Notes: generated by a model from the sequence alone, not told the origin. Counted from the first letter of the stretch, positions 1,173-20,614 are shown. The stretch: 32,000 nucleotides of DNA from Megasphaera elsdenii DSM 20460 (GCF_003010495.1 NZ_CP027570.1:1980001-2012000), one strand, 5' to 3'. Numbers and translations: made by a program.

Positions 1173-1481
1173 ATGAACAAAGACACTGAACGAGATAGGT
1201 TAGCTCAACTCTACCTTGACCAGACCGTCGGCAAAGAATGTTGGGGGTATCAGAACTACGAGAATGTAATGGAAGCTTTCAACAAGAGCCCTGACGGGGA
1301 CATCACAAATATGATAAACTATCTACAGACCCATGTGATGCCTCTAGGTACACCTCTCCGGGAACTGTATCATGAAGCTTCCTCATGGAGAGCTTTCGAC
1401 TACTACAAGGAACAGCCTCGTCCCAAACTGACTGACGAGGTGGCTTACTCCATTGACATGCTGATGAAATTAAGGGGGTAA
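1173..1481 (+). CDS. hypothetical protein (102 aa)
   Basis: ORF preceded by AGGAGG (1162-1167) and tightly packed with downstream genes. Confidence 0.7.
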   Translation: MNKDTERDRLAQLYLDQTVGKECWGYQNYENVMEAFNKSPDGDITNMINYLQTHVMPLGTPLRELYHEASSWRAFDYYKEQPRPKLTDEVAYSIDMLMKLRG

Positions 1482-1485
1482 TATT

Positions 1486-1698
1486 ATGACAGAACAGGAA
1501 AGACAGGATAAGATTTTTAAAGGATTGGTCATGTTATTGATGCAAGTCGATAAATACTTTGAACGGGAGGATGATGGTGCCGAGAAAGGAGAATTGGTTA
1601 TTCTCAAAGGCCTTATCCGGAAACGGAAAGATAGTTTACTTGACTTACTGGAGAGAAAGAATGATAACATCATCCAGTTCCCGGGATTGAAAGACTGA
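1486..1698 (+). CDS. hypothetical protein (70 aa)
   Basis: ORF starts 5 nt after the previous stop. Charged, coiled-coil-like composition. An antisense ORF of similar size looks like junk. Confidence 0.55.
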   Translation: MTEQERQDKIFKGLVMLLMQVDKYFEREDDGAEKGELVILKGLIRKRKDSLLDLLERKNDNIIQFPGLKD

Positions 1699-1714
1699 TA
1701 TTCAGGAGGCACAC

Positions 1715-3694: not shown

Positions 3695-3697
3695 TGC

Positions 3698-3726
3698 TTG
3701 ACAAAATACTCACTTAGAGTTATAAT
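3698..3726 (+). promoter_or_regulatory. consensus sigma-70/sigma-A type promoter
   Basis: TTGACA (3698-3703), a 17-nt spacer and TATAAT (3721-3726), all read directly. The 15-mer atactcacttaRagt from the spacer recurs at 3799-3813 in a degenerate second unit (CTTACA...AATAAA). Confidence 0.6.
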
Positions 3727-4097
3727 AAATACGTAAGGTGAGGCAAGGGAGTTTCCGAACAACAGCTCCGAGGAGGCTCCCAAAAATTTTATCTTACAAT
3801 ACTCACTTAAAGTAATAAAAAACAAAGGAGAGATAAAATGCCCTACGATTCTTACAAATGCCCAGATGGGGGCGTTATAAAAATTGAAGATTGTTTGAAG
3901 CAGTGTAGGCTAGTCGGGAAGATAAATCCCGTGACTGGGATGCTCTATGTACCGTGTGGCAGATGCTTGTCAGCCCCTACGTTACGGAAGATAGCCGAAC
4001 AGAGGGAGTGGACGGGTAAACCTTCTACAACTCAGTGCCTCAGAGGTATGGTCCTATGTCAAGATTTCGGACAAATTAAATTGAGGTTTTTCGTTTC

Positions 4098-5012
4098 TTA
4101 GATTCCCAGACGCATATTATGTTTCTGGAAATCAGCATACAGCTTTTCATAGTCATCCGGTGACATGTAGTTGCAATGGCTATGAATGCGTACGGTGTTG
4201 TAAAAGGTATTGATGTATTCAAACACCAACAAGTACGCTTGCTGATAATTTTGAATCTTGAAGCGATTGAGCCATTCCCGTTTAATCAGGGAGTGGAAGG
4301 ATTCGATGCAGGCATTGTCCCATGGATAGCCTTTCTTCGAATAGCTGCGGCGCATTTGGGATGTCTCCCGAATATATGCCTGCGAAACATACTGGCAGCC
4401 ACGGTCCGAATGGATAACCAACAGCTGTCCGGGTTTCCGGCATTGTTTGGCTTCCTGCAGCATCTTGACGATGCCGGCGACGTCCAGATTACGGGCCAGA
4501 TTCCAGGCGATGATTTTCCTGGAGAACAAATCCATAATGCTTTCCAAATAGACGAAACCTTCAGCTGTCCAGATATAGGTGATGTCGCTGCACCATACTT
4601 GATCCGGTTCTTCAGGATTGAAGCATTCCTGAAGGATATTCACCAGCGCCACGTCAAAGTCACTGTTACGGGTCGTTACGGTGTAATGCTTTACCCAGCA
4701 GGCCTGAATGCCCATTTGCCGCATGTATACGCCAACTGTGCGTTCAGAGATACTGTCCCCGTTCTGCTGCATAACTTGGGCAATCTTCGGGGCTCCGTAA
4801 ATCTGCTTGGAATCGTCGTAGATAGTTTGAATCTTTTTCTTCATCTCCTTGCGGTGCTGGGCCTGTTTCGATGGTTTGCGCGCCGCCCAGTCATAATATC
4901 CTGAAGAAGAAACGTCGAGTTCAGAAAGCACTCCGGACACCGAAAAACGACGTTCTGCCTGATGGGCATTTTCGGCTTCTTCCTGGACACTGCGATAGAT
5001 GGCAATGGTCAT
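4098..5012 (-). CDS. IS3-family transposase OrfB (DDE integrase core), probably made as an OrfAB fusion by -1 frameshifting
   Basis: DDE motifs WCSDITY, HSDRGCQY and DNACIESFH, with D-35-E spacing counted by hand. The orfB frame is open back through the A7G slippery site. Confidence 0.9.
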   Translation of the reverse strand: MTIAIYRSVQEEAENAHQAERRFSVSGVLSELDVSSSGYYDWAARKPSKQAQHRKEMKKKIQTIYDDSKQIYGAPKIAQVMQQNGDSISERTVGVYMRQMGIQACWVKHYTVTTRNSDFDVALVNILQECFNPEEPDQVWCSDITYIWTAEGFVYLESIMDLFSRKIIAWNLARNLDVAGIVKMLQEAKQCRKPGQLLVIHSDRGCQYVSQAYIRETSQMRRSYSKKGYPWDNACIESFHSLIKREWLNRFKIQNYQQAYLLVFEYINTFYNTVRIHSHCNYMSPDDYEKLYADFQKHNMRLGI

Positions 5013-5290
5013 TTGTCCAGAATGCTGATAGCTTTTTTTAGGACATTCAACGCATCCTTCGCATCCCGCAGTTCACGCTGCAGACGGGCGATTTCCTTAG
5101 CTTCATCCGAAGCATAGTTGCCGGAACCACGATAAGGCATTTCGCCATTGTCCTTCAGCTGCTTTTGCCAACGGGACAAGGTTTGTGGAGCAATACCTAG
5201 ATTCGTAGCACAGCCAACCAAGCCGAGTTCCCGATGTTCATGATAATATTTAACTGCGTTGATTTTGAATTCTTTGTTGAATTTTGCCAT
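5009..5290 (-). CDS. IS3-family transposase OrfA (HTH)
   Basis: 93-aa ORF with an HTH (GIAPQTLSRWQKQ) and a leucine-zipper-like C-terminus. AAGGAGG lies upstream of the ATG. Confidence 0.9.
   Translation of the reverse strand: MAKFNKEFKINAVKYYHEHRELGLVGCATNLGIAPQTLSRWQKQLKDNGEMPYRGSGNYASDEAKEIARLQRELRDAKDALNVLKKAISILDK
5032..5039 (-). promoter_or_regulatory. programmed -1 ribosomal frameshift site (A AAA AAA G) of the IS3 transposase
   Basis: The - strand reads cta aaa aaa gct near the orfA end. Slipping by -1 gives KKSYQHSGQMTIAIY, which joins the orfB frame with no stop. Confidence 0.7.
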
Positions 5291-6047
5291 ACTGAGGCCT
5301 CCTTAGTTAATCCTATTGTACCACCATTAGGAACCTCAGTTTGACTTGTCCTATTTATATGCTAACACCAGTACTAGGGAAGCCTACCTTATGCTAACTC
5401 ATGATTACGCTATAGACCCAAAGAGCATGATGTTTGCCCTGTTGGGGACCCAGACCCACGCCAACCTAGAACATGGTATGGAAGAGGGGGATTTAGGAGA
5501 ACAGAGATTGGATGACGGAGTATCTACTGGGGCTTTCGACTTCTACTCTCCGGAAAACGGGGGACTCTATTCGACTACAAAACGTATGGGTCATATGTAG
5601 CCGCTAAGACAATGGGAATGGGGACTCAAAAGGTTTTAGTGGGCCATTATAAAAACGGCAAACCGAGGTACAGAACAATCATCACATATGGAAATGCGAA
5701 GCATATGTTTGACTTAGCCGTACAAATGAATGACTACCGTATGAAAATAGAGAACATCCTCCACAAGCCAGTAGCGAATATGGTTTGTGAAATAATCGTC
5801 AGGGATGGCAATACCTACATGGCCACAAGCCGTGGAGTAACAGAAAATGCATATCTGGTTCCGGTTGGTAAGATTTCGGACCGTTGGATGAAACGATATA
5901 TGGAGAAAAAGGCTGGGGATTTAATAAAAGCCTTGGAAACTAAGACGCTCCCTCCACCTTGTAAAACAAGGGAATGTTGGGGTGGAAATAAATGTGAAAA
6001 GTTTTGCGCGGTAAACAAGTTTTGCGATGCTTATGGAGGTAAATAAT

Positions 6048-7075: not shown

Positions 7076-7321
7076 ATGATCGTACTTAGTGAAAATGGCA
7101 AAGTTTTGATGGATGCAAAATCCATCTTCATTTCTGAAATCAAAAATAAGGAAGACAAGAACCTGATTGACGGCTACCGTATTTTAGGCTCGTGTGAAAC
7201 AAGTCCGCGCCCGGCAGTATTGAGAACATTCAATGGCGAAGACAGCCTGAAAGATGCTCAGGAAGTCCTTAGTCGGATTGGAGATGCTTTCCATGGGGTC
7301 AATATCGTCAACAACTTATGA
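7076..7321 (+). CDS. hypothetical protein (81 aa)
   Basis: The ATG at 7076 lies 8 nt after GGAGG (7063-7067). ORF 7061..7321. Confidence 0.6.
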   Translation: MIVLSENGKVLMDAKSIFISEIKNKEDKNLIDGYRILGSCETSPRPAVLRTFNGEDSLKDAQEVLSRIGDAFHGVNIVNNL

Positions 7322-7742
7322 TGAAATACTGGCCATGTTTGATGAGGTGAGGCTACGGTACGAAGATTTGAATGATACCGATGTACTGGAGGCTTTCTCT
7401 TTAATGAGAGATTCCTCCTCCCTCTTGGCCAGTTACGACACATTGGCCGCAGATGCCTATAAAATGTCAGCATTGCTCGAACGCAATGCAAAGGCTACGG
7501 AAGCGAGGAAAAGCCTTGAACTTTCCAATAAGCCTACAGACGGGGCAAGAAGAGCGGCCTCTAACGAAGAAGTAATTAAAGCGTGGCAGGATTACGTAGA
7601 AAGCGTTACAAGGCAGAAATACGTAGAAGCCAATGCTAGATTCTTGAGCCGAGTATATTTTGACGCAAAGATGATTGTCGAGAATTGCTACCGAAAGGAA
7701 CGGCCCCCGGTAGGAAATGACAGAATCGTAGGGAGGACATAA
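7293..7742 (+). CDS. hypothetical protein (about 149 aa); start uncertain (7254, 7284 or 7293)
   Basis: ORF 7254..7742 overlaps the previous gene's end. Helical, charged composition. Confidence 0.6.
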   Translation: MGSISSTTYDEILAMFDEVRLRYEDLNDTDVLEAFSLMRDSSSLLASYDTLAADAYKMSALLERNAKATEARKSLELSNKPTDGARRAASNEEVIKAWQDYVESVTRQKYVEANARFLSRVYFDAKMIVENCYRKERPPVGNDRIVGRT

Positions 7743-7743
7743 C

Positions 7744-8193
7744 ATGAAGAAAAAAAGAGGATTCGAAGTTATTTCTAGTTACGCAAAGAAAGGTATCCAT
7801 ATTCCCGAACGTAAAACCTCCAGAAGTTCTGGATATGATTTAGAAGCCGCTAAAGATACGGTTATCCAGCCTCATGATTTAACACGAGTGTATACAGGTA
7901 TTAAAGTTTATATGCCTGAGGACGAATACCTTTTAATTTCCATTCGTTCCAGCCTGGCCTTTAAAAAGGGCCTTATCTTGGCAAACGGCCCAGCAATCAT
8001 TGATAGTGACTACTACAACAACGAAGACAATGAAGGTCATTTGATTATTGGTATTTACAATCCCGGTGACAACCCTGTGTTAATTAAAAAGGGGGACCGC
8101 ATCGCTCAAGGTATTTTCATGAAGTATAAAACGACGGACGACGACACGGCTACAGGAAAACGTGTTGGTGGTATCGGAAGTACGGGCAAATAA
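7744..8193 (+). CDS. dut: dUTP diphosphatase (trimeric dUTPase)
   Basis: Motifs SSGYDL, IRSS, IIDSDYYNNEDNEG, GDRIAQG and a C-terminal GGIGSTGK. Confidence 0.9.
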   Translation: MKKKRGFEVISSYAKKGIHIPERKTSRSSGYDLEAAKDTVIQPHDLTRVYTGIKVYMPEDEYLLISIRSSLAFKKGLILANGPAIIDSDYYNNEDNEGHLIIGIYNPGDNPVLIKKGDRIAQGIFMKYKTTDDDTATGKRVGGIGSTGK

Positions 8194-8203
8194 AAGGAGT
8201 TCA

Positions 8204-8893
8204 ATGGGTTACATGATTAATGACAATGCGGATATTATTACTGGTAATTGTGTTGATTATATCAATGACGTTGTGTCGAAAGCACACAATCCGATAATCG
8301 TAAGCGATCCGCCATTCAATGTCGGGTATCACTACGGCAAATACAAAGACCGCATGGATGACACTGAATACTATGAAATGATGGGAGATATCTTTTCCCT
8401 TTGCCCGTCTGTAATCGTTCACTATCCTGAAAGTTTATATAAGATTTCGTTTCAGATGAAAGTTACTCCGAACAGGGTTGTTTCATGGGTATATAACTCG
8501 AACACTAAAAGGCAACACAGAGATATTGCATTTTTTAACATTGAGCCTGATTTTGAAAAAGTCAGACAGCCTTACAAGAACCCTAATGATAAACGTATAA
8601 AAGCGTTGATTTCCAAGGGGCATAAGGGGGCGGCTCTATACGATTGGTGGAATATCAACCAGGTCAAAAACGTATCTAAACAAAAGACTGGCCACCCTTG
8701 CCAAATGCCACTAAAGGTTATGGAAAATGTTATAGGCGTTCTTCCTGATGATGTTACGATCATCGACCCATTTTGTGGTAGCGGGACGACGTTAGTGGCG
8801 GCAAAAAAGCTGAACAGGAAATACGTTGGAATAGAAATAGACGAAAATTATGTAGCGATTGCTAATGAAAGGCTTTCGTTTGATGTGGCATAA
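8204..8893 (+). CDS. orphan beta-class DNA methyltransferase (N6-adenine or N4-cytosine)
   Basis: Motif IV SDPPF comes before motif I DPFCGSGTT (beta permutation). The ATG at 8204 follows AAGGAG. No adjacent restriction endonuclease gene. Confidence 0.85.
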   Translation: MGYMINDNADIITGNCVDYINDVVSKAHNPIIVSDPPFNVGYHYGKYKDRMDDTEYYEMMGDIFSLCPSVIVHYPESLYKISFQMKVTPNRVVSWVYNSNTKRQHRDIAFFNIEPDFEKVRQPYKNPNDKRIKALISKGHKGAALYDWWNINQVKNVSKQKTGHPCQMPLKVMENVIGVLPDDVTIIDPFCGSGTTLVAAKKLNRKYVGIEIDENYVAIANERLSFDVA

Positions 8894-8915
8894 ATATTAT
8901 ACAAAGGAGAAAATC

Positions 8916-9134
8916 ATGGAAAAAGATTACTTGAAATTAATGGAAATTAGCAGTCAAGCATCTACTATTAGCGGCATCACAAGAACTCTGACTAAAGATA
9001 TTCAAGAGGGGGAACATGGTAATTACACTTTCGGATATGTTCCTGCGGCTAGCACTAAGACCAGAATCCACAACAAGATTGTTATGTTGCGCGGTGAACT
9101 TAACCGCTTAGACAAGATGATTCAGGGGGTATAA
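8916..9134 (+). CDS. hypothetical protein (72 aa)
   Basis: The ATG at 8916 follows AAGGAG. Lies within ORF 8859..9134. Confidence 0.6.
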   Translation: MEKDYLKLMEISSQASTISGITRTLTKDIQEGEHGNYTFGYVPAASTKTRIHNKIVMLRGELNRLDKMIQGV

Positions 9135-9344: not shown

Positions 9345-9574
9345 TGGTAACTACTGCTATTATTACGTTACAGATGTTATTTATTATTTTAAAGGTTGTA
9401 GGAGTTCTTGTTTGGAGTTGGCCAGTAATCTTTACTCCTATTATTGTTTTGGCTGTACTTAGTGTTCTAAGTCTACTTCTAGCTGCCTTAATTGCCAAAT
9501 TATTCGGTATTAATTTGAGTTGGAGTAAGAAAGACAAATGTTTTTATTACAGACACCACGAGGAGGAGAAATGA
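9344..9574 (+). CDS. small membrane protein (two predicted TM helices)
   Basis: The ATG overlaps the previous stop (TAATG). Hydrophobic stretches are TAIITLQMLFIILKVVGVLVW and IIVLAVLSVLSLLLAALIAKLF. Confidence 0.55.
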   Translation: MVTTAIITLQMLFIILKVVGVLVWSWPVIFTPIIVLAVLSVLSLLLAALIAKLFGINLSWSKKDKCFYYRHHEEEK

Positions 9575-9840
9575 AACAGCAAGTTGATTTAGCAGAAGGG
9601 ATTCCGAAACCGGAGTGGTACGGGGAACATTATGAAGGTGATGTTCAGCCTATCGAGCTTATGCAGGCTCAGTTCAACACCGAAGAGTTCACCGGTGGGC
9701 TTCTGTTTAATATCATCAAGTACGCGTCCCGGTTTGGTAAGAAAGATGAACCGATTAAGGATGCCAAGAAGATTCTCCGGTATGCAGAATGGCTCGTAGA
9801 CCATTGCGAGGGGAAAAAAGTAGACCCTAGAAAGGACTAG
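9571..9840 (+). CDS. DUF3310-like phage protein
   Basis: The ATG at 9571 follows GAGGAGGAG. HYEGDVQPIEL...FNIIKYASRFGKKDEPIKDAKKILRYAEWL matches the DUF3310 pattern as I recall it. Confidence 0.6.
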   Translation: MKQQVDLAEGIPKPEWYGEHYEGDVQPIELMQAQFNTEEFTGGLLFNIIKYASRFGKKDEPIKDAKKILRYAEWLVDHCEGKKVDPRKD

Positions 9841-9844
9841 ATAT

Positions 9845-10342
9845 ATGATGTTGTATGCCCATGATATTGCACTTATTTTTGACATGGAGCCAAACAAGAC
9901 TTTTGCTGTTCGCCGTTTCAACTGCGAAAACGATTTAATCGGCTTCTTCTACTTCGACATGGATAAGGGATTGCGTAATGCCACCAACGACGCCGTATCC
10001 AAAAACGTACTCTTGAATCTGTTGGATGGAGAATATTACATCGACAAATGCACCGTGCAGGAAAAGAAGGAAGAGAAAGTTAAACCTAGTTCCAAAGAGA
10101 AGTTCAAACCTCATATCGGGGAACGGTATTGGTATATTCCTCTTCCTAGCCACACGGAAAAGAGTGCCATCTTTGGCAGTGTTAAAAGCTTTGAACAGAG
10201 CTTGAGTAGTAATTTCTTCCGTACGAGAGAGGAAGCTCGAAAAGGTAAGAAGGAAATCATTGCACAATACGAATCTTTCCAGAAAGAATGTGGAAAGTAT
10301 ATTCAGGACAAAAAGAGATTGGAGGCGTTCTTCGTTGACTAG
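9845..10342 (+). CDS. hypothetical protein (165 aa)
   Basis: ORF with Lys/Glu-rich, phage-like composition. The 182-aa antisense ORF looks non-coding. Confidence 0.65.
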   Translation: MMLYAHDIALIFDMEPNKTFAVRRFNCENDLIGFFYFDMDKGLRNATNDAVSKNVLLNLLDGEYYIDKCTVQEKKEEKVKPSSKEKFKPHIGERYWYIPLPSHTEKSAIFGSVKSFEQSLSSNFFRTREEARKGKKEIIAQYESFQKECGKYIQDKKRLEAFFVD

Positions 10343-10787
10343 TTTAGAAAAGAATCTTTTAGACCAAGTAACATTTATCGTAGATAAAGAAAACCGGATC
10401 GTAAAATGCCTCCCGAAATATGCGAAAGAAATGGGACTGCAAAGAGCTACGGAATGTATCGTAGCAAATATGGTTAATGACAAGATGGAAATTTATGCGG
10501 TATCAGAGAGTGGACTTCTTTTTACCCCGGCGTTTAAACAGTATCGGCTCAATAAGAATCAGTGCTTTGCTGTTGCGAAATGCTCACCGAATGATACCTT
10601 CGACGAGAAGGTTGGCAAGCGGGTAGCCTTCAATAAGCTGAAACTCCGATTGGTAAGGGTAGCGGCGAAAGTGTCAGCTAAAATTTCGTATAACGCATCC
10701 CAAGCTTGTATATGCTTCGATTTAGATACCATTGATGCTTTAGATAATTTAGCTGACACCATGTACAATAACAAAAAGAAGGAGTGA
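10335..10787 (+). CDS. hypothetical protein; probable TTG start
   Basis: ORF 10260..10787. The TTG at 10335 lies 9 nt after GGAGG (10321-10325). Contains the AVAKCSPNDTFDEKVGKRVAFNK motif, which is common in small phage proteins. Confidence 0.55.
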   Translation: MTSLEKNLLDQVTFIVDKENRIVKCLPKYAKEMGLQRATECIVANMVNDKMEIYAVSESGLLFTPAFKQYRLNKNQCFAVAKCSPNDTFDEKVGKRVAFNKLKLRLVRVAAKVSAKISYNASQACICFDLDTIDALDNLADTMYNNKKKE

Positions 10788-10792
10788 TTCTA

Positions 10793-11332
10793 ATGAATTC
10801 TTTCAATCCAATGGATGTTTCTAATTGTAAACTACCGGTTGTAAATAAAGGAATTACCCTTACAGAGATACCTAATCGTATCTCTGTATTTTTTGAAATC
10901 GGCAACTGTACCTGTCATTGTGATGGGTGTCACAGTCCAGAGCTTTGGGACACTAACTACACAATACCGAATATGACGGTTCAGGAAATCGTTGATTATG
11001 TCGATGAACAGTACAAGCTCGGAGCAAATGCCGTAGTTCTCATGGGCGGGATGAATAATAAAGATGTTTCAAAGGATGTATTTACTATTTTATTACTTGA
11101 ACTGTCTACTAGACAAGTTGGTATTTACGTTGGTTCAGATGATTTAAAGTGGTTGCCATTGCTTCCGGTTAGATGGATAAAAGCTGGTGGGTATGAGAAA
11201 GACAAAGGAGGGCTTGATTCTCCGACAACGAACCAGCGGTTCTATGAATATGATCCCACTAATCGGGTGTGGGAGGATAAAACCAAAGAATATTTCCAGA
11301 GGAGTGATAATAATGAAGAAGAAAATCTGTAA
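10793..11332 (+). CDS. nrdG: anaerobic ribonucleotide reductase activating protein (radical SAM, NrdG-like)
   Basis: Cys cluster GNCTCHCDGCHSPELW near the N-terminus. About 180 aa, located immediately upstream of nrdD. The ATG at 10793 follows GGAG. Confidence 0.7.
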   Translation: MNSFNPMDVSNCKLPVVNKGITLTEIPNRISVFFEIGNCTCHCDGCHSPELWDTNYTIPNMTVQEIVDYVDEQYKLGANAVVLMGGMNNKDVSKDVFTILLLELSTRQVGIYVGSDDLKWLPLLPVRWIKAGGYEKDKGGLDSPTTNQRFYEYDPTNRVWEDKTKEYFQRSDNNEEENL

Positions 11333-11576
11333 GTTCTATATTGACAACTGTTTCCATTGCAATCGAATCAGCGGCACATTCGCAAAGCTGGCTGAAAAGT
11401 ATAAAAACGAGATTGATTTTGAGAATAAAAGGGTAGAATCCTCCCTAATGGAGAAAAAATACAATCTGCACATTTACCCGACAGTTGTTGTCTATGATGG
11501 CGATAAAGAGATTGACCGGATTGAGGGGGTTATTCCACCGGAAGTATTAAAAGATTTTGTTGAGGAGGCTCTTTGA
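11313..11576 (+). CDS. thioredoxin/glutaredoxin-like redox protein
   Basis: CxxC motif (DNCFHCN) plus a cis-Pro-like IYPTVVVY. 87 aa. The ATG at 11313 follows GGAG. Confidence 0.65.
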   Translation: MKKKICKFYIDNCFHCNRISGTFAKLAEKYKNEIDFENKRVESSLMEKKYNLHIYPTVVVYDGDKEIDRIEGVIPPEVLKDFVEEAL

Positions 11577-12187
11577 TGACAAATAAAAAATCGTTCTTTA
11601 ACTATCTTACACCGGAACAGATTCAGAAAAAGGTAGATTTCATTAATTTTTATATCGGGGCCACCAATAACGCATCGGCTTCCTTGGTAGACCCTAACTC
11701 CAATGTCTCTGAAAAGAATATGGGTACACTCAAGGAAGAGATGTATAAATTCGAGAACATCCAAGTCAGCCGCAAAATCATCAAAGACAAAATCACGGAA
11801 ATGTTTGGAGATGATTTAGCCGACCAGTACGAGGAAGATATTGAAAGCCATCTTCTGTATTGCCATGATGAAACATTGGCCGCTTTTCTCCCTTATTGCG
11901 CTTCTGTCACGATGTATCCATTTTTGTTGAATGGGACGAAATGTTTGGGTGGTACAAGTAAAGCACCGAAGAATCTCCAATCTTTCTGCGGCTCGTTTGT
12001 TAATCTGGTGTACCAGCTGGCTACGAACTGGGCTGGAGCAACGGCGACCGTAGAATTCCTTATGTATTTTGACTATTTTGCCCGGAAACAGTATGGGGAC
12101 AACTACCTTTCTGTAGCTAGAGACCGCATTGCCCAAGAGTTGCAAGGTGTTGTCTACGCTCTTAACCAACCAGCGGCGGCACGTGGT
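11576..12187 (+). CDS. nrdD: anaerobic ribonucleoside-triphosphate reductase NrdD, exon 1
   Basis: The ATG at 11576 lies 7 nt after GAGGAGG. The product ends ...VYALNQPAAARG, which continues as NQSVFWNIS at 12440. T4 and E. coli NrdD have an RGGNQVVFSS / RAGAQVPFSS type motif, as I recall it. Confidence 0.8.
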
Positions 12188-12439
12188 AAGTAATATTGCC
12201 ACTACACATCTAATCGTTTATCAGCGAAGTCGTTGATTATTCAACGGCTGTCGGGGAAAGCTAAAGCCATTCAGGTATGCTAATCCCGAGCCAAGCTAAA
12301 CTGAAAGCAGTTTAGAAGGTGTATCGACTATCCCCTGTTGTGGGGGAGTAGGGGAGCTATTGATACGTTCCTCGAAATGGTGTGCTAACATTTGTTAGTA
12401 AGAGATAGTCAGAGCCTACGTGAAAGCGTGGGGTACTCG
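12188..12439 (+). ncRNA. group I intron (252 nt, no ORF) in nrdD
   Basis: The 5' exon ends in U (12187). A 5-bp P1 pairs 12183-12187 (GUGGU) with 12198-12202 (GCCAC), with a G.U wobble at the splice site. The last intron nucleotide is G (12439). Internal hairpins include ctaaactg/cagtttag and a GAAA tetraloop stem at 12415-12433. Splicing restores the NrdD frame. Confidence 0.7.
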
Positions 12440-14173
12440 AATCAATCGGTGTTTTGGAATATCTCTGTGTTCGATAAATATTACTTCGATAGTATCTTCG
12501 GTGGTTTCCGTTTCCCCGATGGCACTCAGCCAGATTACGATAGTTTGAGCCGGTTACAGAAATTCTTTATGGAATGGTTCCGAAAAGAGCGAAAGAAAGA
12601 ACTCCTCACTTATCCGGTACTTACTGCCGCTGTATTACTGGACGAGGACAAGAAACCGAAAGATGGGGATTTCGCGTGGTTCCTTGCCGAGGAAATGTCT
12701 AAAGGATTGTCCTTCTTCATCTATGAATCTCAGAGTGCAGACTCTCTTGCGTCGTGCTGTTTTGACGCTAATCAACGAGTATTAGTACGTAACGAAGATG
12801 GCGTTAAACTTATCCGAATTGGTGATTTTAAACCAATGAGCAATTTAACTATATTCTTCGATGGGAGTTGGGTAAAAGGTAGTTTTGTGAAAGCAACTCC
12901 TACCGATAAAATGTATCGAATTGTAACGTCCAATAAAAAAGAAGTTTTTTGCACATCTAATCACATTTTCCCAACGATGGATGGAGATAAAAGGGCAGAT
13001 GAAATTACTACTGACGACTGGCTTATGTTCAACGATAGAGCTTATAAAGAAGGCAGTGGGGAGTATAAAGATGGATTCCTTATTGGAATGTATTTGGGAG
13101 ACGGTTCTATTTACGAACGGGAAAAATGTAATTCTGTCGAAGTTACCCTCTCACTGAATGAGGATAAGGTTAAGAAATGTATTGAATACCTACCCGGTTG
13201 GCATTTATACAGCTCTAAAAATAACGTTATATTTGCCAAGACAACTGACAAGAACATTGCTGAATTTATTAAATACTGGGTTAAGGGAAGTAGATGCAAC
13301 ACCAAAGAGCTTAATATGGATGTTTGTAATAAAAGCTTAGATTTTCGTCGGGGTATTCTTGATGGATTTTACGCAACCGACGGAGGAAATAGCAACAGAA
13401 TTTATACAACATCTAAAAAACTAGCAGAACAAATGGAAGCTATGCTTACCACAATGGGTATCCAGACTATCTTGGATGTAAGCGATAGGACTAACGAAAA
13501 GGTTGTCGTTCGCGGGGAAGAGTTTACTCGCAATTTCCCTTTGTATTGCATCCGTTGGTATGAACCTAAAAATAAACGCTCTATGGGTGATGTATATAAA
13601 ATAACAATTAACGGAACTTTCTTTAAAGTATCCGAGGTTCAGGAAATAACGAACTACGATGAACCTGTATATTGCTTTAATATGGCAGATGGCAAGGAAC
13701 CATATTTCACATTGGCTAATGGTATTCAGACGCATAACTGTCGACTCCGCAACGAACTGGCCGACAACACATTTTCCTATACGTTAGGCGCTGGTGGTGT
13801 ATCTACTGGTTCTTTCCGAGTTATTACCATCAACATGAACCGATATGTTCAGCAGTATGAAAGTAAGTTGCCATTTGGTGATTTGATTAGTCGTATCCAT
13901 AAATACCTCGCCGCTCATCGAGCTGTAATCAAACATTACATCGAGCTGGGTATGTTACCGGCTTATACGGCGCAGTTCATTAACTTTGATACACAGTTCG
14001 GGACTATTGGTATCAACGGTATGTTGGAAGCTATGGAATATAAAGGCTTCTCCCCGACAGTAGATAAAGAAACATATCAGCAAGCAGTATCCAAATACCT
14101 TAAAGCGATTTACGACCTCAATAAGGCGGACATGGTTGTATATGGGTTCCGGTTTAACACCGAGTTCGTGCCT
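12440..14173 (+). CDS. nrdD: NrdD exon 2 (contains an in-frame intein at 12758..13738); the gene then breaks off at a second intron
   Basis: NQSVFWNISVFD... SLASC-[intein]-CRLRNELADNTFSYTLGAGGVSTGS ... FRFNTEFVP. The annotated ORF tail KMRGHIAA* is intron read-through. Confidence 0.8.
12758..13738 (+). mobile_element. intein (327 aa) with LAGLIDADG homing endonuclease domain, inserted in the NrdD SCCRL motif
   Basis: Block A CFDANQRVLV, block B CTSNHIF. LAGLIDADG motifs GFLIGMYLGDGSI and RRGILDGFYATDGG. C-terminal ...IQTHN is followed by a +1 Cys. Removing the intein gives SLASC-CRLRN. Confidence 0.85.
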
Positions 14174-14566
14174 AAAATGCGTGGGCACATAGCGGCATAA
14201 TACATAAACCGCTATAAGAAAACTCCTTTTAATTGACTTGAAGTCCCAGAAGTGGGTAACAAGGCGCAAGCGTAATGGTAGCGTGAACGACTAAATAAAG
14301 GAGGGCCACTTCGGTGGTTGTGCGATAGTCTGAACCGACGATATAACAAAATGAAACGTCGGAGTCGTGGTCAAGTGTAAAGACACTTTTGGAAGAACCA
14401 CGACCGCCTATAAACCTTACCCTCCGGGAAGGAGGGCTTATGAAAAAATGTTGTTTTTGTGGTGTTACTGAAGAAAATGCAAGAGTAGAAAAGTATCATG
14501 GAAAATACTTTTGTCACAAACACTACATACAATACATGAGGCATGGTAAATGCTTCGATAGAACTA
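14174..14566 (+). mobile_element. 5' part of a second group I intron in nrdD carrying an HNH-type homing endonuclease gene; cut off by IS copy 2
   Basis: The exon ends in U (14173). A 6-bp P1 pairs 14168-14173 (GUGCCU) with 14183-14188 (GGGCAC), with a G.U wobble. Stems include atagcgg/ccgctat, a gccac-UUCG-gtggt hairpin, cgacg/cgtcg and gtcgtggt/accacgac. The NrdD frame stops making sense after NTEFVP. Confidence 0.65.
14440..14566 (+). pseudogene. N-terminal 42 codons of an intron-encoded HNH/zinc-ribbon homing endonuclease, truncated by the IS
   Basis: MKKCCFCGVTEENARVEKYHGKYFCHKHYIQYMRHGKCFDRT carries the C..C...C.KHY.....G repeat typical of phage HNH endonuclease N-termini. Its GGAGGG RBS (14431-14436) pairs with CCCTCC (14420-14425). 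Confidence 0.55.
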
Positions 14567-14615
14567 TGGTCCTATGTCAAGATTTCGGACAAATTAAATT
14601 GAGGTTTTTCGTTTC

Positions 14616-15530
14616 TTAGATTCCCAGACGCATATTATGTTTCTGGAAATCAGCATACAGCTTTTCATAGTCATCCGGTGACATGTAGTTGCAATGGCTA
14701 TGAATGCGTACGGTGTTGTAAAAGGTATTGATGTATTCAAACACCAACAAGTACGCTTGCTGATAATTTTGAATCTTGAAGCGATTGAGCCATTCCCGTT
14801 TAATCAGGGAGTGGAAGGATTCGATGCAGGCATTGTCCCATGGATAGCCTTTCTTCGAATAGCTGCGGCGCATTTGGGATGTCTCCCGAATATATGCCTG
14901 CGAAACATACTGGCAGCCACGGTCCGAATGGATAACCAACAGCTGTCCGGGTTTCCGGCATTGTTTGGCTTCCTGCAGCATCTTGACGATGCCGGCGACG
15001 TCCAGATTACGGGCCAGATTCCAGGCGATGATTTTCCTGGAGAACAAATCCATAATGCTTTCCAAATAGACGAAACCTTCAGCTGTCCAGATATAGGTGA
15101 TGTCGCTGCACCATACTTGATCCGGTTCTTCAGGATTGAAGCATTCCTGAAGGATATTCACCAGCGCCACGTCAAAGTCACTGTTACGGGTCGTTACGGT
15201 GTAATGCTTTACCCAGCAGGCCTGAATGCCCATTTGCCGCATGTATACGCCAACTGTGCGTTCAGAGATACTGTCCCCGTTCTGCTGCATAACTTGGGCA
15301 ATCTTCGGGGCTCCGTAAATCTGCTTGGAATCGTCGTAGATAGTTTGAATCTTTTTCTTCATCTCCTTGCGGTGCTGGGCCTGTTTCGATGGTTTGCGCG
15401 CCGCCCAGTCATAATATCCTGAAGAAGAAACGTCGAGTTCAGAAAGCACTCCGGACACCGAAAAACGACGTTCTGCCTGATGGGCATTTTCGGCTTCTTC
15501 CTGGACACTGCGATAGATGGCAATGGTCAT
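14616..15530 (-). CDS. IS3-family transposase OrfB (copy 2); A7G frameshift site at 15550-15557
   Basis: Predicted product identical to that of 4098..5012. Confidence 0.9.
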   Translation of the reverse strand: MTIAIYRSVQEEAENAHQAERRFSVSGVLSELDVSSSGYYDWAARKPSKQAQHRKEMKKKIQTIYDDSKQIYGAPKIAQVMQQNGDSISERTVGVYMRQMGIQACWVKHYTVTTRNSDFDVALVNILQECFNPEEPDQVWCSDITYIWTAEGFVYLESIMDLFSRKIIAWNLARNLDVAGIVKMLQEAKQCRKPGQLLVIHSDRGCQYVSQAYIRETSQMRRSYSKKGYPWDNACIESFHSLIKREWLNRFKIQNYQQAYLLVFEYINTFYNTVRIHSHCNYMSPDDYEKLYADFQKHNMRLGI

Positions 15531-15808
15531 TTGTCCAGAATGCTGATAGCTTTTTTTAGGACATTCAACGCATCCTTCGCATCCCGCAGTTCACGCTGCA
15601 GACGGGCGATTTCCTTAGCTTCATCCGAAGCATAGTTGCCGGAACCACGATAAGGCATTTCGCCATTGTCCTTCAGCTGCTTTTGCCAACGGGACAAGGT
15701 TTGTGGAGCAATACCTAGATTCGTAGCACAGCCAACCAAGCCGAGTTCCCGATGTTCATGATAATATTTAACTGCGTTGATTTTGAATTCTTTGTTGAAT
15801 TTTGCCAT
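15527..15808 (-). CDS. IS3-family transposase OrfA (copy 2)
   Basis: Predicted product identical to that of 5009..5290. Confidence 0.9.
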   Translation of the reverse strand: MAKFNKEFKINAVKYYHEHRELGLVGCATNLGIAPQTLSRWQKQLKDNGEMPYRGSGNYASDEAKEIARLQRELRDAKDALNVLKKAISILDK

Positions 15809-15888
15809 ACTGAGGCCTCCTTAGTTAATCCTATTGTACCACCATTAGGAACCTCAGTTTGACTTGTCCTATTTATATGCTAACACCA

Positions 15889-17745
15889 TGGTCTAAGCCA
15901 ATCCCAAAAGCTCCCCAAGCATTAACTGTTAATACCGAGTTCCAAGGGTTGCTTATTTCTTACAGCCCTATTCCCGAAGACTGTATCGGTATCTGTATCT
16001 CTATTAACGGGGAAAAACATTTTACCTCCGATGATTCTTTCCATTACTACTGTGTCATGGGGGATTTTACGGTCAAGGCTGCTTATTATGATTGCTTTGG
16101 GGAGGGAACGTGGACTAAAGAACAAACTGTCAGTCTTGTGACTCTGGTGGACCCGGCTTGGTTAAAGAGGGAAAGTATTACGCTAGAAAAAGTTGACAAG
16201 AGCATACAAACAGCCGTAAAAGATGCTCAGGATAGTGTAACAGGAATCGCGGAGCTTAAAACGACTACAGATTCCATCTCATCTACTGTTTCCTCGAATA
16301 AAGCTGCTCAGGACGCCCAAAACAAGAAGTTTGTTTCTCAGATTTCCCAGACAAGCTCCCAAGTTTCCTCCGTTGTTACAGATTTGTCTAACGCTAAAAC
16401 AGATTTAAGCAATACCAAGGCACAGGTGAACAGTAATTATACAGCCATCCTCCAGAATCAAAACGATATTGCTCTAAGGGTAAAGACTGGAGAGCTTATC
16501 CAGCAAATAAACCTATCGAAAGAGGGGGTTGCGATAAATGGTAGCAAGGTTCATATTACTGGAGAGACTGTGTTTGATAACGGTGTAATCGTATCTTCGT
16601 ACCTTGGTGACAAGCAGATAGTTGGGACCAAGATTGCTGACGGAGCTATTACGACCGGAAAATTGTCGGCAAATAGTGTCACAGCAGGAAAGTTGGCTTC
16701 TAACTCAGTGACGACTGACAAGATTGCGGCGGGAGCTATTAAATCAGATAAACTCGACACAGGAGCGGTTACAGCGGACAAAATCAAGGCTGGGGCTATT
16801 ACTGCTGATAAACTCACTTCCGGTGCCGTAACCGCTGATAAGCTAGCCGCCAATACGATTAATCTGGCAGGAGCTTTAAAGATTGTTGGCGGTAACGTTA
16901 CACTGGACGAAGACGGTATGACAGTCAAAGAAACAAATGGGAGTTCCGTTCTGTTTGGTGAAAATGGTATGTCATTTGTCGATAGCAATGGTCACACGTT
17001 TTCAGGTATTGGGAGATTTTGTACAGGAATCGTGAACGACGGCCAGACTGTTAAATTCGCTAACCCGTGGGACATCACTCCAACCGTCTTTTTATTCCCT
17101 ATAAGACTACAAACTTCGGCTGTTGGGTACACCAATATCAATATGTATCAAGACGTAGAAGCCATTAATGTGTCGGCTAATGGGTTCACCGCAGTTTGTA
17201 AATCGGTTTTGAAAGCTGGTAGTGGCTCTAATATCCCAGTTTCATGGGAATGTCGTGGTAGTAATGAAAACCCAGGCGGCAATGGTAAAAATGAAAGTTA
17301 TAAATATAACATTAACGTCCCAACGTCTGCCACCCATATTTGGATTTCCATAGAAATCTCTGCCTTTTATCAAAGCTATGTTCGGGTAGGCAAAAATGAC
17401 TATCACGCGTTTGTCGCTTGGGACGAAGGGTCTGTTTCTGTTTCGACAAACACTGGTGTAAGTGAAGCCCGTAACAATTGTGTTAATGGATATGATGGGC
17501 AAAGTGCAGGGGAAGATACTTATAGTCACTATAAAAGAGATACCAAGAGTTTTACGTTTGACATGGACCTCTCACATGTTTCAACTGTAACGGTTACATT
17601 TTCGTTTAGCGGGGCATGTGATTCTCGGTCGTATGGAAAAATACTATCATACCGTACTAACCTAAATTCTGATGTCACGGTTTGTAGAGGGACAGCTGGC
17701 TTTATTGCTATTGACCCGAATACAGTTCCTTACACTATTTCATAG
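15889..17745 (+). pseudogene. 5'-truncated tail / minor structural protein (C-terminal about 619 codons)
   Basis: The reading frame enters directly from the IS end. The phage-derived part starts mid-domain (WSKPIPKAPQALTVNTEF...). It then has a coiled-coil-like Ser/Thr/Gln region, seven decapeptide repeats and a C-terminal beta-rich domain. The first 10 codons of ORF 15859..17745 are IS sequence. Confidence 0.7.
16636..16845 (+). repeat. seven tandem 30-nt (decapeptide) repeats inside the tail protein
   Basis: ADGAITTGKL / SANSVTAGKL / ASNSVTTDKI / AAGAIKSDKL / DTGAVTADKI / KAGAITADKL / TSGAVTADKL. Confidence 0.85.
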
Positions 17746-17754
17746 GAGGAGATT

Positions 17755-17913
17755 ATGGAATATAAAAAGTATGTTCAAAAGCCATTTGAAGTAGAAGCAT
17801 ATCAAAATGATTCTGGCGACTATGTGTTTCGCTATAAAACGAACGGCGAATATATAGAAAGTACAATGCCTAAAGAATCTTTTGAATCTATATACGAATT
17901 AAAGGAGGAATAG
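17755..17913 (+). CDS. small hypothetical protein (52 aa), below the ORF-track size cutoff
   Basis: The ATG lies 4 nt after AGGAGGAG (17744-17751). The stop TAG at 17911-17913 abuts the next gene's ATG at 17914. Reads MEYKKYVQKPFEVEAYQNDSGDYVFRYKTNGEYIESTMPKESFESIYELKEE. Confidence 0.5.
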   Translation: MEYKKYVQKPFEVEAYQNDSGDYVFRYKTNGEYIESTMPKESFESIYELKEE

Positions 17914-18303
17914 ATGGCTAAAATAAAACAAACTACCCCCACCCACGACTTTGTAGTCCCTCAGGGTGAGGATTTTATTTTCCAGCTCAAACTATATACC
18001 GGGGACAACACAGGCAAACAACCTCTCAACATAACAGGATATCAATTCCGGTGTGAGGTGAGAGAGGAAGCTGGCGATGATTCCCCCGCCATGACAGCCG
18101 ATTGCCATATCGTGAATAATGTAAGCGGTATCGTGGAAATCCATTTTAAGGCGGATGATAGTGACACCCTGGAATTAGATGGCACTTATTACGGGGAATT
18201 ATCCCAGTATACATACGACGTATTTGAAGTAGATTCAGATGGACTCGAAAAAAGAATCCTTTGCGGATACTTATACGTTTCTCCGTCTGTATCAAATCGG
18301 TGA
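17914..18303 (+). CDS. hypothetical virion-associated protein (129 aa, beta-rich)
   Basis: The ATG at 17914 follows AAGGAGGA. Located between the tail genes. Confidence 0.7.
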   Translation: MAKIKQTTPTHDFVVPQGEDFIFQLKLYTGDNTGKQPLNITGYQFRCEVREEAGDDSPAMTADCHIVNNVSGIVEIHFKADDSDTLELDGTYYGELSQYTYDVFEVDSDGLEKRILCGYLYVSPSVSNR

Positions 18304-18304
18304 G

Positions 18305-20614
18305 GTGAGACAAATAGAAACAATCGAAGTTATTCTCCCTAAAGAGAAGGAGTTAGTTGAACTGAGTACCGGTTTAAAAGGAGAAACCGGGGTTAGTATT
18401 ACAGACTTTGTTCTAAACGAAGATGGGACGACGATAACCACTTTTGATAACGGAGAAAAGAGGGAAGCCAAACTAACCAGCTTTGTTAAGGTAAAAGAGG
18501 AAGCTGATAAAGCTCAGAAGAGTGCAGAGGCAGCTTACACGTCTATGGTGGCGGCGCAGGACTCCGAACGAAAAGCATCCGTCAGTGAGATTAACACCAA
18601 ATCCTCTGAGCAAGCTTCTAAATTAAGTGAAACCAATGCCCGAAAAAGCGAAGAAAGTGCGGCATCATCTGCGGCAACAGCCACTGGGCAAGCCTCTAGT
18701 GCCAGAACTTCTGCGTCTAATGCTTCTGTGAGTGAGGCTAACTCAAAAGCCTCTGAGAAAGCGGCTTCAGTCTCCGCATCCAATGCAAAGGCAAGTGCCG
18801 ATACCGCTTCCACTCAAGCATCAGCCTCGGCCTCTAGTGCGACTAGTGCAAAAAATTCAGCCACGTCTGCTAGTCAATCAGCTTCCAGTGCCTCTTCTAG
18901 TGCCTCCTCCGCAAGCAATAGTGCATCTTCGGCAGCTAGTAGCGCGGCTTCTGCTAGCGATTCAAAAGATAAAGCTTCTGAATATAAGACATCGGCAAGT
19001 GGTAGTGCCACAGCGGCGGCTTCTTCGGCATCTTCTGCTAGCACATCGGCCACAAATGCTAAAGCGGCCATGAACACTGCTAATACAGCGGCATCTTCTG
19101 CAAGCACATCGGCTACGAGTGCAAGTACTTCTGCTAGTAATGCCTCTAAGTCGGAGGTAGCCGCCAAGTCTGCTCAGGCTGAAGCAGAAAAAGCTAGAGA
19201 CGAAGCAAATAGTGCTCTTGCGAAAATCTCTGGTGCCCTCAAATATATGGGGCAGGTAGATAACTATAACGACTTACCTTCCACTGGTAATTCTAAAGGG
19301 GATACTTGGAATGTAGTCAATGCCGACCTCTCGCACCATATCAAAGCCGGAGATAATGTGGCATGGAATGGGACAGAGTGGGATGACTTATCTGGGGTAG
19401 TAGATTTATCGGCTTATGCAGAAAAAACTGACTATCAGAAAGCAATCACTTCGGCCACAGCCAATGGAGCCACGATTACCTTTAATCACAAAGATGGTAC
19501 AACTTCTACAGCTACGGTCAACAATGTGGCTTCTGCCACAGCGGCTACAAATGATGCCAAAGGACAGAAAATTGATACCACTTACGAAAAGATTTCCGAT
19601 GCTTCTAACGTCCACGCATCTTTGCAGAATAGTATTAATACCAAGTTAGATAAAACGGGAACTGCTGTTTCTGCAACAAAGCTAAGTACAGCCAGAACAA
19701 TTCAAATTAACCTTGCAAGCACAACAGCAACCGCTTTTGACGGAAGCGCTAATATTACTCCGGGAGTTACTGGAACATTATCAGTCAGTAATGGCGGTAC
19801 CGGTTCAAATTCATTAGCTAATATTATAGTTGGTAGAGCGACATCTGATGATCATGGCAATAATATTGCTAACACATATCTAAAAAAGGCTTCTGCATTA
19901 GGAAAGAATAATTTAAATACAATTACAGCTGAAGGCATTTATTATCAGAACGGTAACGATGCTTCTAACGTAACGGATTCTAACTACCCATGTAATAGAG
20001 CAGGTTCTTTAATAGTAACTACTAATTATGCTGACGGTGATAGTGGATGCTCTCAAATTTATATTCCATATGATAATAATACTATATATATTAGACATCA
20101 TATGGCAAGAAGTGGTATATGGTCTTCCTGGTCTAATTTAGCGACTACTGACAGTAATGTAAATAGTGCTAATAAATTAGCTACAGCTAGAACGATAAGC
20201 CTAACGGGCAACGCGACTGGTTCTGCTAGTTTTGACGGTAGTGGAGACATTAGTATTAGTACTACTGTTAATGAAAGTAAGCACGCGGCGGCGGCGGATA
20301 TAGCAAAGACGTTGCAGTTAGTAGAAGGCGACAGATCAACGAGTCAGGCTACGTTTAACTGGATTGGAAAGGACGGACAGCCGGCGTGGCTATGGGGCGG
20401 TAACGGCATGAACAATATGTATGTCTACAACCCGTCAAATTTCTACGTCGCGAGAGCTAAAAGTGCGGATACGGCTACGAAAGCTAATCAGGATGCTTCC
20501 GGGAATGTTATCACAGATACCTATGCTAAAAAAACATATGTAGATGAACGTATTGCAGCTCTTGAGGATGCTGTCAACACCTTAAAGAAAGGAGCGACTA
20601 CTACAAATGGCTAA
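18305..20614 (+). CDS. tail fiber protein with long Ser/Ala-rich low-complexity stalk
   Basis: ORF 18239..20614. A GTG at 18305 just after the upstream stop is the likeliest start. Motifs include KGDTWNV...GDNVAWNGTEWDDLSG and two K(L)(S/A)TARTI...FDGS..I repeats. Also LSVSNGGTGS, typical of phage fibers. Confidence 0.8.
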   Translation: MRQIETIEVILPKEKELVELSTGLKGETGVSITDFVLNEDGTTITTFDNGEKREAKLTSFVKVKEEADKAQKSAEAAYTSMVAAQDSERKASVSEINTKSSEQASKLSETNARKSEESAASSAATATGQASSARTSASNASVSEANSKASEKAASVSASNAKASADTASTQASASASSATSAKNSATSASQSASSASSSASSASNSASSAASSAASASDSKDKASEYKTSASGSATAAASSASSASTSATNAKAAMNTANTAASSASTSATSASTSASNASKSEVAAKSAQAEAEKARDEANSALAKISGALKYMGQVDNYNDLPSTGNSKGDTWNVVNADLSHHIKAGDNVAWNGTEWDDLSGVVDLSAYAEKTDYQKAITSATANGATITFNHKDGTTSTATVNNVASATAATNDAKGQKIDTTYEKISDASNVHASLQNSINTKLDKTGTAVSATKLSTARTIQINLASTTATAFDGSANITPGVTGTLSVSNGGTGSNSLANIIVGRATSDDHGNNIANTYLKKASALGKNNLNTITAEGIYYQNGNDASNVTDSNYPCNRAGSLIVTTNYADGDSGCSQIYIPYDNNTIYIRHHMARSGIWSSWSNLATTDSNVNSANKLATARTISLTGNATGSASFDGSGDISISTTVNESKHAAAADIAKTLQLVEGDRSTSQATFNWIGKDGQPAWLWGGNGMNNMYVYNPSNFYVARAKSADTATKANQDASGNVITDTYAKKTYVDERIAALEDAVNTLKKGATTTNG
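18510..19230 (+). repeat. Ser/Ala/Thr-rich low-complexity coding region (GCN/TCN-rich)
   Basis: Runs such as SASSASSSASSASNSASSAASSAASAS. This produces spurious ORFs in other frames and on the opposite strand. Confidence 0.8.

Follow-up and report, generated by a model that had tools for sequence, protein, structure and literature searches.

A truncated prophage nrdD of Megasphaera elsdenii carrying two group I introns and an intein, probably cut by recombination between insertion sequences

The DNA considered here is a 32,000-nucleotide (nt) stretch of the Megasphaera elsdenii DSM 20460 chromosome (NZ_CP027570.1, positions 1980001-2012000; hereafter the window), a defective, phage-derived region in which our subject is nrdD, the gene for a class III (anaerobic) ribonucleotide reductase. 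In our judgment it is highly probable that this nrdD was colonised by three homing elements (a group I intron, an intein and a second group I intron) and was then cut by a deletion arising from recombination between copies of an insertion sequence (IS) of the IS3 family. What remains in the defective prophage is a pseudogene lacking its 3' end, from which no active reductase could come.

Exons of nrdD and the missing 3' end

Three exons of nrdD lie on the + strand of the window. Exon 1 (11576-12187, codons 1-204) is 97.5% identical to residues 1-204 of the intron-less homolog P0001; exon 2 (12440-12757, codons 205-310) is colinear with P0001 over AARG|NQSV and up to SLASC; and exon 3 (13739-14173, codons 311-455) is 97% identical to residues 311-455 of P0001 and is the last part of nrdD found here. 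Spliced and freed of the intein, they give a product of 455 aa that aligns over 100% of its length, at 97% identity, with an uninterrupted 604-aa NrdD, colinear at every junction. A collection of 5.8 billion proteins yielded 13 NrdD proteins of 604 aa without interruption, which match the query along 100% of its length at 93-97% identity and are continuous at all three junctions (AARG|NQSV, SLASC|CRLRN and NTEFVP|AEGLG); since these homologs run uninterrupted, the three interruptions are real insertions at the positions given. The 455-aa product is also colinear with residues 51-498 of the 651 in Thermotoga NrdD (PDB 4coi, E=5e-51), and it contains the NRDD domain that bears the Cys loop (PF13597, 199 bits, profile positions 7-414 of 562). 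A preliminary description of this DNA, made from the sequence, had drawn the same exons, and its coordinates proved exact; the check that it had proposed, colinearity of the spliced, intein-free product with NrdD, was passed across each junction, and the search that it had suggested for homologs free of introns and intein returned the 13 proteins as well as four relatives (L001-L004) without any of the elements.

P0001 continues past residue 455 (AEGLGVKN...) for another 149 residues. A tblastn search with these residues (456-604) found no match anywhere in the 32-kb window, and neither the C-terminal zinc ribbon nor the glycyl-radical motif (RVIGY in P0001) was found in it. The gene had been described as interrupted three times and then resumed; the resumption falls away, as the window contains no fourth nrdD exon. 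Judging by their sequences, both intron 1 and the intein would still be able to splice, and the part of intron 2 that lies in the window could undergo the first, guanosine-attack step at most.

An insertion sequence at the deletion junction

Exon 3 is followed by the start of intron 2, whose endonuclease gene breaks off after 42 codons at an IS3-family element of 1322 bp on the - strand (copy B, 14567-15888). The ends of this element, TG...CA with imperfect inverted repeats, enclose overlapping genes orfA (15527-15808; HTH, with Pfam HTH_Tnp_1) and orfB (14616-15530; DDE rve, with Pfam HTH_21, rve and rve_3), and, in the -1 frame, orfB is open on the upstream side of an A7 slippery site (15551-15557). 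In its length, termini, overlapping orfA and orfB, A7 -1 frameshift site and 3-bp target duplications the element is like other members of the IS3 family, and nothing atypical was seen in it; the earlier call of an IS3-family element starting at 14567, its left end inside the nuclease gene, was correct.

The window holds another copy of the same IS, 100% identical to copy B, which the preliminary description had missed. Copy A (4049-5370, - strand) is a simple insertion inside a homolog of a 295-aa gene that is continuous at this point in the relatives L001 and L149, and it is bounded by the target duplication GTA (4046-4048 and 5371-5373). A perfect 3-bp target duplication is present in 10 of 11 other copies of the IS, namely copy A and nine of the ten taken from M. 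elsdenii and metagenomes. Copy B has CTA on its left and TGG on its right, that is, no target duplication. As a separate observation, the gene of a more distant relative has a weak PDDEXK_15 match at the position equivalent to the copy A site.

The right flank of copy B belongs to a different gene. Positions 15889-17745 (+ strand) encode 618 C-terminal aa of a tail protein of the gp58-like type, ~258-261 N-terminal residues being absent; the fragment aligns to residues 259-704 of the 891-aa protein P0159 and, in P0125, from residue ~262 on, and the IS flank is in frame with tail residue ~259. Full-length relatives of this protein have 860-897 aa, and with these closer homologs at hand the 1856-aa L012 was rejected as a model for it. 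Given the lack of a target duplication and the tail gene on the right, we read the IS as a deletion junction at which nrdD is truncated. The nest that had been described, an IS within an endonuclease gene within an intron within a gene, cannot be maintained, as there is no target duplication, the right flank is a tail gene and nrdD does not resume in the window.

The extent of the deletion can be gauged on an intact relative, contig ERR13762918_2716, which carries nrdD at 7266-9080 and the tail gene (P0159) at 34567-37242 on the same strand. The interval between the two contains genes for the small terminase, a reverse-strand module, the large terminase, the portal, the major capsid protein and the adaptor, and the distance from the intron 2 site to tail residue 259 is ~26.7 kb. 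None of ten proteins sampled from this interval matches the window. Flanks that are co-oriented and colinear, together with the missing target duplication, are as expected from recombination between directly repeated IS copies. Contigs L151, L152 and L153, which come from another assembly and from two sequencing runs, show the same left junction and end 28-132 nt inside the IS. A second complete DSM 20460 assembly annotates the truncated tail gene, its start inside the IS, as C6362_09530, a hypothetical protein of 622 aa (P0121).

Among the alternatives, the one that survives best, although we hold it to be improbable, is an IS-mediated inversion or translocation after which the missing ~27 kb would persist elsewhere between IS copies. 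Many IS copies are present in the genome, and a copy without target duplication on a metagenomic contig (L139) suggests that recombination between IS copies occurs; against relocation, the flanks of copy B keep the order and orientation seen in the relatives, which is the signature of a direct-repeat deletion and not of an inversion. A scan for NrdD exon 4 among species-representative genomes with exact 8-residue patterns, in a collection whose inclusion of this strain is uncertain, returned a distant Pustulibacterium only and no Megasphaera locus, which gives weak support to deletion over relocation. We think it very improbable that the junction is an assembly artefact, a mis-join across a 1.3-kb repeat that would hide two IS copies in an intact prophage. 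Such repeats often mis-join, the IS copies are 100% identical and very abundant in M. elsdenii, and the short-read contigs L151-L153 break inside the IS; however, the complete assemblies, of 2,474,718 and 2,478,942 bp, share the truncated tail gene starting in the IS, the ten interval genes that were sampled have no match in the window, and the scan for exon 4 met with none in the Megasphaera representative genomes. Finally, the view that the IS simply inserted and split the endonuclease gene, with gene, intron and nrdD resuming after 15888 in a four-level nest, can be dismissed: it is true that the IS begins, on its left, within the endonuclease reading frame at codon 42, and copy A is an insertion of just this kind, but copy B has mismatched flanks with the tail protein in frame on its right, and endonuclease residues 46-201, NrdD residues 456-604 and the intron 3' end are all unmatched in the window.

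Intron 1

The first interruption, 252 nt at 12188-12439 (+ strand), is assigned to group I as an intron without an open reading frame (ORF), on the strength of an Rfam match, the P1 pairing and its absence from relatives. The group I model RF00028 aligns over its full length (model positions 1-253) to 12178-12432 with 35.1 bits and E=2.1e-6, a score under the gathering score of 50; at the gathering threshold Rfam reports nothing in the whole window. In P1 the U that ends exon 1 pairs with G (GUGGU|AAGUAAUAUU / GCCAC), and the final base of the intron, at 12439, is G. An in-frame stop is the second intron codon, and the resulting 205-aa product of reading through exon 1 was matched exactly in 25 blocks of the collection, M. 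elsdenii HE576794 among them. Removal of the intron restores the colinear frame across AARG|NQSV that is unbroken in the 13 intron-less homologs. The predicted fold is far more stable than those of shuffled sequences (minimum free energy z=-4.25) and contains hairpins P1, P2, P4-P5, P6, P8 and P9. These results agree with the original account of a 252-nt, ORF-less group I intron.

Relatives differ in what they carry at this site. L149, at ~97% nucleotide identity, has the same ORF-less intron; in L150 the intron holds a 650-nt insert that encodes a 216-aa GIY-YIG endonuclease; and in L001-L004 the intron is missing.

The intein

The second interruption is a LAGLIDADG intein of 327 aa (12758-13738, + strand), set between the two cysteines of the SCCRL loop, so that the exteins are colinear as SLASC|CRLRN. 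Its sequence features are those of a class 1 intein: it begins with Cys1 and has a block B (TSNH), two LAGLIDADG motifs (LIGMYLGDGS and ILDGFYATDGG) and the end QTHN|C with Cys+1. Pfam finds LAGLIDADG_3 at 39.8 bits, over its cut-off of 22.5, and Intein_splicing at 34.4 bits, which is 1.4 below the cut-off of 35.8. The type, length and place of the intein are as they were initially given. In a sequence search of the PDB it had only marginal matches, to the DnaB and gp41-1 inteins (E 0.03-0.4).

The intein is missing in P0001-13 and L150 and is found in L149, and two further proteins (P0027 and P0028) have other inteins at the very same SCCRL insertion point. Over 94% of the query, extein flanks included, it is ~40% identical to the insert in NrdD of Clostridium phages c-st and D-1873; the NrdD insert of Desulfovibrio phage 7757 is likewise ~40% identical, extein flanks included. 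The c-st insert has been recorded as a putative intein (PMC3653736), and from this identity at the same site the intein in the window is an allele of one already noted. The two are alike in their insertion point and LAGLIDADG type; they differ in that the identity is only ~40% and the host phages belong to different lineages.

Other genes of the intact relative have intein-like matches. In L156 (ERR13762918_2716) an 812-aa large terminase has Hom_end and LAGLIDADG_3 matches (1-322), and a 1058-aa portal protein (1397-4573) has a faint LAGLIDADG_3 match. There may be further inteins in the packaging genes of this phage lineage.

Intron 2: a group I intron that Rfam does not recognise

The third interruption starts at 14174 on the + strand. 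Its ribozyme core, from the 3' strand of P1 to P9.1, occupies 14174-14404 and is intact; 14405-14439 holds the 5' arm of a peripheral hairpin, P9.2, and a hairpin that would sequester the ribosome-binding site. Rfam found no group I core in this second intervening sequence, which at face value is half of the outcome that the preliminary description had named as refuting it, and the structure was therefore checked directly by covariation.

Homologous introns occupy the identical site in the relatives L005-L011 and L013-L017, whose NrdD is ~78% identical. They come in three versions: a minimal one of 266-268 nt (L009, L013, L014), one of 397 nt with a remnant of the start of an ORF (L005-8, L016) and one of 897 nt with an ORF for a 201-aa HNH_3 protein (L010, L011, L015, L017). 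In the 397-nt version (L007, ~7605-7736) the first ~16 endonuclease codons (MKKCCFCGEAEENAKT...) are fused to unrelated sequence, and it is clear that this version is a remnant left by loss of the endonuclease gene. P9.2 is closed by CCUAUU..AAUAGG in the minimal relatives and has the ORF in its loop in the longer ones, so that the ORF of intron 2 is placed in the loop of a peripheral hairpin on the 3' side, beyond a complete core. Upstream of it a hairpin of 6 bp (CCCUCC, 14420-14425, with GGAGGG, 14431-14436) buries the ribosome-binding site of the endonuclease gene, an arrangement that has been described for the intron endonucleases of T4 (PMC2988022).

Eleven helices could be assigned (P1, P2, P3, P4, P5, P6, P7, P8, P9, P9.1 and P9.1a). 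P1 pairs GUGCCU with GGGCAC and places a U.G pair at the 5' splice site, and P7 (GACUA / UAGUC) is pseudoknotted with P3. In an alignment of five distinct sequences (A3), 98.7% of the cells are paired and 16 of the 61 pairs are changed on both sides; when the partner was slid by 1-3 columns, 0-2 double changes remained, and the observed value was reached in none of 500 shuffles. One of the compensatory pairs (columns 3/19) joins a synonymous exon change, GUC->GUG, to a change of the guide from GGGGAC to GGGCAC.

The core is shared well beyond nrdD. A motif scan found at least 120 metagenomic loci (L018-L137) that have the core CGACUAAAU...GAUAGUCUGAAC together with UAAUUGACUUGG, with strong covariation in P3, P5, P6 and P8. 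RNAalifold, run on 36 independent members of this class with the nrdD family excluded, recovered P3, P4, P5, P6 and P8; of 25 pairs, 19 were compensatory. The same 36-member alignment yielded a covariance model (R1) that matches the window at 14217-14379 with 130.5 bits and E ~1e-27, a score that is partly by construction, the source loci having been retrieved with a 21-nt intron 2 motif; the covariation is evidence independent of that retrieval. R1 gives 128.5 bits for L039, a locus that Rfam itself calls group I at E=9e-8. When 20 of the core loci were tested, RF00028 called two at the motif site (43.4 and 27.6 bits) and missed 18.

The possibility that 14174-14566 is some other intervening or intergenic sequence, at which nrdD is naturally split, is hardly credible. 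It draws on RF00028, which has no match at E<=10 either to the window or to the intact introns of L005 and L013. It has to contend with the U.G pair in P1, the terminal G in the relatives, the helices from P3 to P9.1 with their 16 compensatory pairs, the P3/P7 pseudoknot, presence/absence polymorphism at one exact site, an endonuclease gene in a terminal loop and the behaviour of RF00028 itself, which misses most loci with this core and yet calls two of them group I. We therefore assign intron 2, from its predicted structure, to group I and to a class that the Rfam model handles poorly. Surveys of introns that rely on Rfam will undercount this class, and the metagenomic loci look like a large group I class that is under-detected by standard scans.

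The intron is incomplete at its other end. In relatives it ends ...AGUAACAGAUUG|GCAGA, with G as its last base; no 3' splice site with a terminal G and no 3' exon were found in the window, where TAGGTCATAAAAGTAACAGA, the conserved 3' end of the intron, is not matched at <=4 mismatches and the two best sites differ at five. A blastn search of intron 2 against phages gave one weak partial match only. Of the second group I intron as first proposed, then, the start at 14174 stands on relatives, covariation and R1, and the 3' end is missing from the window; the suggested check against RF00028 succeeded for intron 1, below the gathering score, and failed for intron 2.

The endonuclease gene remnant

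Only the first 42 codons of the homing endonuclease gene of intron 2 are present (14440-14566, + strand), encoding a zinc-finger-like N-terminus. Against the N-terminus of the 201-aa ORF of L010 the fragment shows 65% identity across 43 aa (E=3e-17), and in that ORF Pfam finds HNH_3 at residues 120-147 (33 bits, cut-off 24.8). Residues 46-201 of the L010 ORF have no tblastn match in the window. On the 42-codon fragment Pfam finds nothing and the HNH catalytic motif is not present, and exact look-up of the 59-aa ORF that fuses endonuclease and IS gave no record. The HNH label is given by homology, since the window lacks the catalytic part: the preliminary description was right that this is a nuclease gene, and its HNH type, unreadable from 42 codons, comes from homologs of the L010 type. 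It had also called the gene split by the IS, and no remainder of the gene follows the IS.

Points against the reading, and a proposed order of events

Several points weigh against colonisation followed by an IS-mediated deletion. The right junction is seen in two complete assemblies, both from one strain; the absence of the lost segment elsewhere comes from that one scan for exon 4; and, as given above, the RF00028 score of intron 1 is under the gathering score, intron 2 and its intact counterparts have no RF00028 match, and the score of R1 owes something to how its loci were gathered.

Under the reading that we prefer, deletion by recombination, three independent homing elements would have entered nrdD: an intron after codon 204, the intein and an intron after codon 455. 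Intron 1 would by now have become ORF-less, the GIY-YIG gene still being present in a relative's copy. With the phage DNA resident in M. elsdenii, the abundant host IS3 element would then have inserted at codon 42 of the endonuclease gene and, in a step that we infer, another copy would have inserted in the tail gene at ~codon 259. Recombination between these directly oriented copies would have left one hybrid IS with mismatched flanks. The deletion, ~26.7 kb as measured on the relative, would have taken what was left of the endonuclease gene, the 3' splice site of the intron and the final 149 codons of NrdD with the zinc ribbon and the glycyl-radical motif, along with the genes for the small and large terminases, portal, capsid and adaptor and, from the tail gene, its 5' third. 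The prophage holds two IS copies, and this history would imply at least three insertion events.

The relatives preserve what may be earlier stages. At ~97% nucleotide identity, L001-4 have none of the elements, L150 has intron 1 with its GIY-YIG gene only, and L149 has the ORF-less intron 1 and the intein in a complete nrdD; set against this series, the window carries both introns and the intein. The more distant relatives (NrdD ~78%) show intron 2 in its minimal, remnant-bearing and HNH-carrying forms.

The insertion sequence in other phages

The IS is very abundant in M. elsdenii, with several copies in HE576794 and hits in 745 index blocks. The copy without target duplication mentioned above (L139, 3952-5273) lies on a 170-kb metagenome contig, adjacent to a YadA-like adhesin gene, and may be another product of recombination between IS copies. 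In a 64.8-kb T7-like phage contig (L140, 3952-5273) the IS has a 3-bp duplication and lies between tail and lysis genes, and its terminal 39 nt are found at the end of a 60-kb relative of the window phage (L150, 20062-20100). It appears that the IS enters phage genomes repeatedly. Phages that act as vehicles of insertion sequences are considered rare. If the metagenomic contigs were packaged, viable phages, Megasphaera phages might act as vehicles of the IS, and recombination between its copies might routinely inactivate resident phages, a proposal that we regard as doubtful.

Surroundings of the locus

A sequence of M. elsdenii, HE576794.1 (L148), agrees with the window at 99.995% identity over 20.6 kb, and megablast of window positions 9500-18500 against cultured phage records gave no match. 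Upstream of nrdD, on the + strand, lie its operon partners, an NrdG-like radical-SAM activase (10784-11332; Pfam Fer4_12, 23.3 bits; motif CTCHCDGC) and a thioredoxin gene that ends at 11576 (Pfam Thioredoxin, 41.9 bits); the order activase-thioredoxin-nrdD is also found in relatives.

Elsewhere in the window, an inverted repeat of 54 nt (891-944 / 1104-1157) sits in an AT-rich intergenic stretch upstream of replication genes, its arms 80% complementary and 159 nt apart. Inside a 791-aa ORF that follows the tail gene, a 34-nt unit occurs five times (18690-19143; copies 65-88% alike) at uneven start-to-start spacings of 168, 168, 63 and 21 nt. From 26.4 to 32 kb, ~5.5 kb of A-rich DNA seemed free of ORFs; a noncoding or recoded region was considered and rejected, as the stretch is one giant ORF (26442-32000, at least 1853 codons, open past the end of the window).

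Significance and comparison with known systems

Knowledge of introns, inteins and IS elements is unchanged by this locus, and the gene is dead in this genome. Its interest is as a fully resolved example of successive invasions followed by decay through IS recombination. Relatives at ~97% identity would represent its earlier stages (a gene free of elements, intron 1 with GIY-YIG, the ORF-less intron 1 with the intein) and more distant ones the three forms of intron 2. Its value thus lies in an unusually complete comparative series and in the proof that the Rfam group I model misses a widespread class. The locus could be used for teaching and for benchmarking annotation pipelines, and it could be a starting set for the study of homing in gut Megasphaera phages.

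Ribonucleotide reductase genes are a classic refuge of phage introns and inteins: nrdE of SPbeta has an intron and an intein, nrdE of Brochothrix phage A9 three introns and an intein, and nrdD of Lactococcus phage 949 an intron and intein-like remnants (PMC3653736). The density of elements, initially thought unusual, is therefore matched or exceeded in published genes of this kind (PMC3653736). The nrdE genes of SPbeta and A9 resemble the locus described here in that both kinds of self-splicing element are stacked in one phage reductase gene; they are of class Ib and are described as complete, whereas the gene in the window is a class III nrdD without its 3' end. A ribonucleotide reductase gene of Trichodesmium reportedly has four inteins and three group II introns. 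A published precedent for an IS in a group I intron in a ribonucleotide reductase gene is, going by its title, a paper by Meng et al. (2007; reference 36 of PMC4227781); the case in the window differs in that the IS is also a deletion junction and the intron is incomplete.

The closest parallel to intron 2 by gene is the nrdD (sunY) intron of T4, a self-splicing, mobile group I intron that lies in the anaerobic reductase gene of a phage, encodes I-TevII and has a hairpin sequestering the ribosome-binding site of this endonuclease (PMC2988022). I-TevII is a GIY-YIG enzyme, whereas the relatives of intron 2 encode an HNH_3 protein, and intron 2 has no detectable nucleotide similarity to any T4-like record. 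The ORF of the T4 nrdD intron likewise lies 3' of the catalytic core.

The physical joining of a group I intron to an IS recalls the IStrons (CdISt1, BcISt1 and their relatives), one such element being known in a Megasphaera species (PMC4227781). IStrons have IS200/IS605 genes at the intron 3' end and form one splicing-competent unit; the IS described here is of the IS3 family, is autonomous with its own inverted repeats, has copies in unrelated genes and adjoins an intron whose 3' end is gone, and an IStron reading was rejected on these grounds. All components of the locus are of known families, and stacks of such elements as dense as this one or denser have been published.

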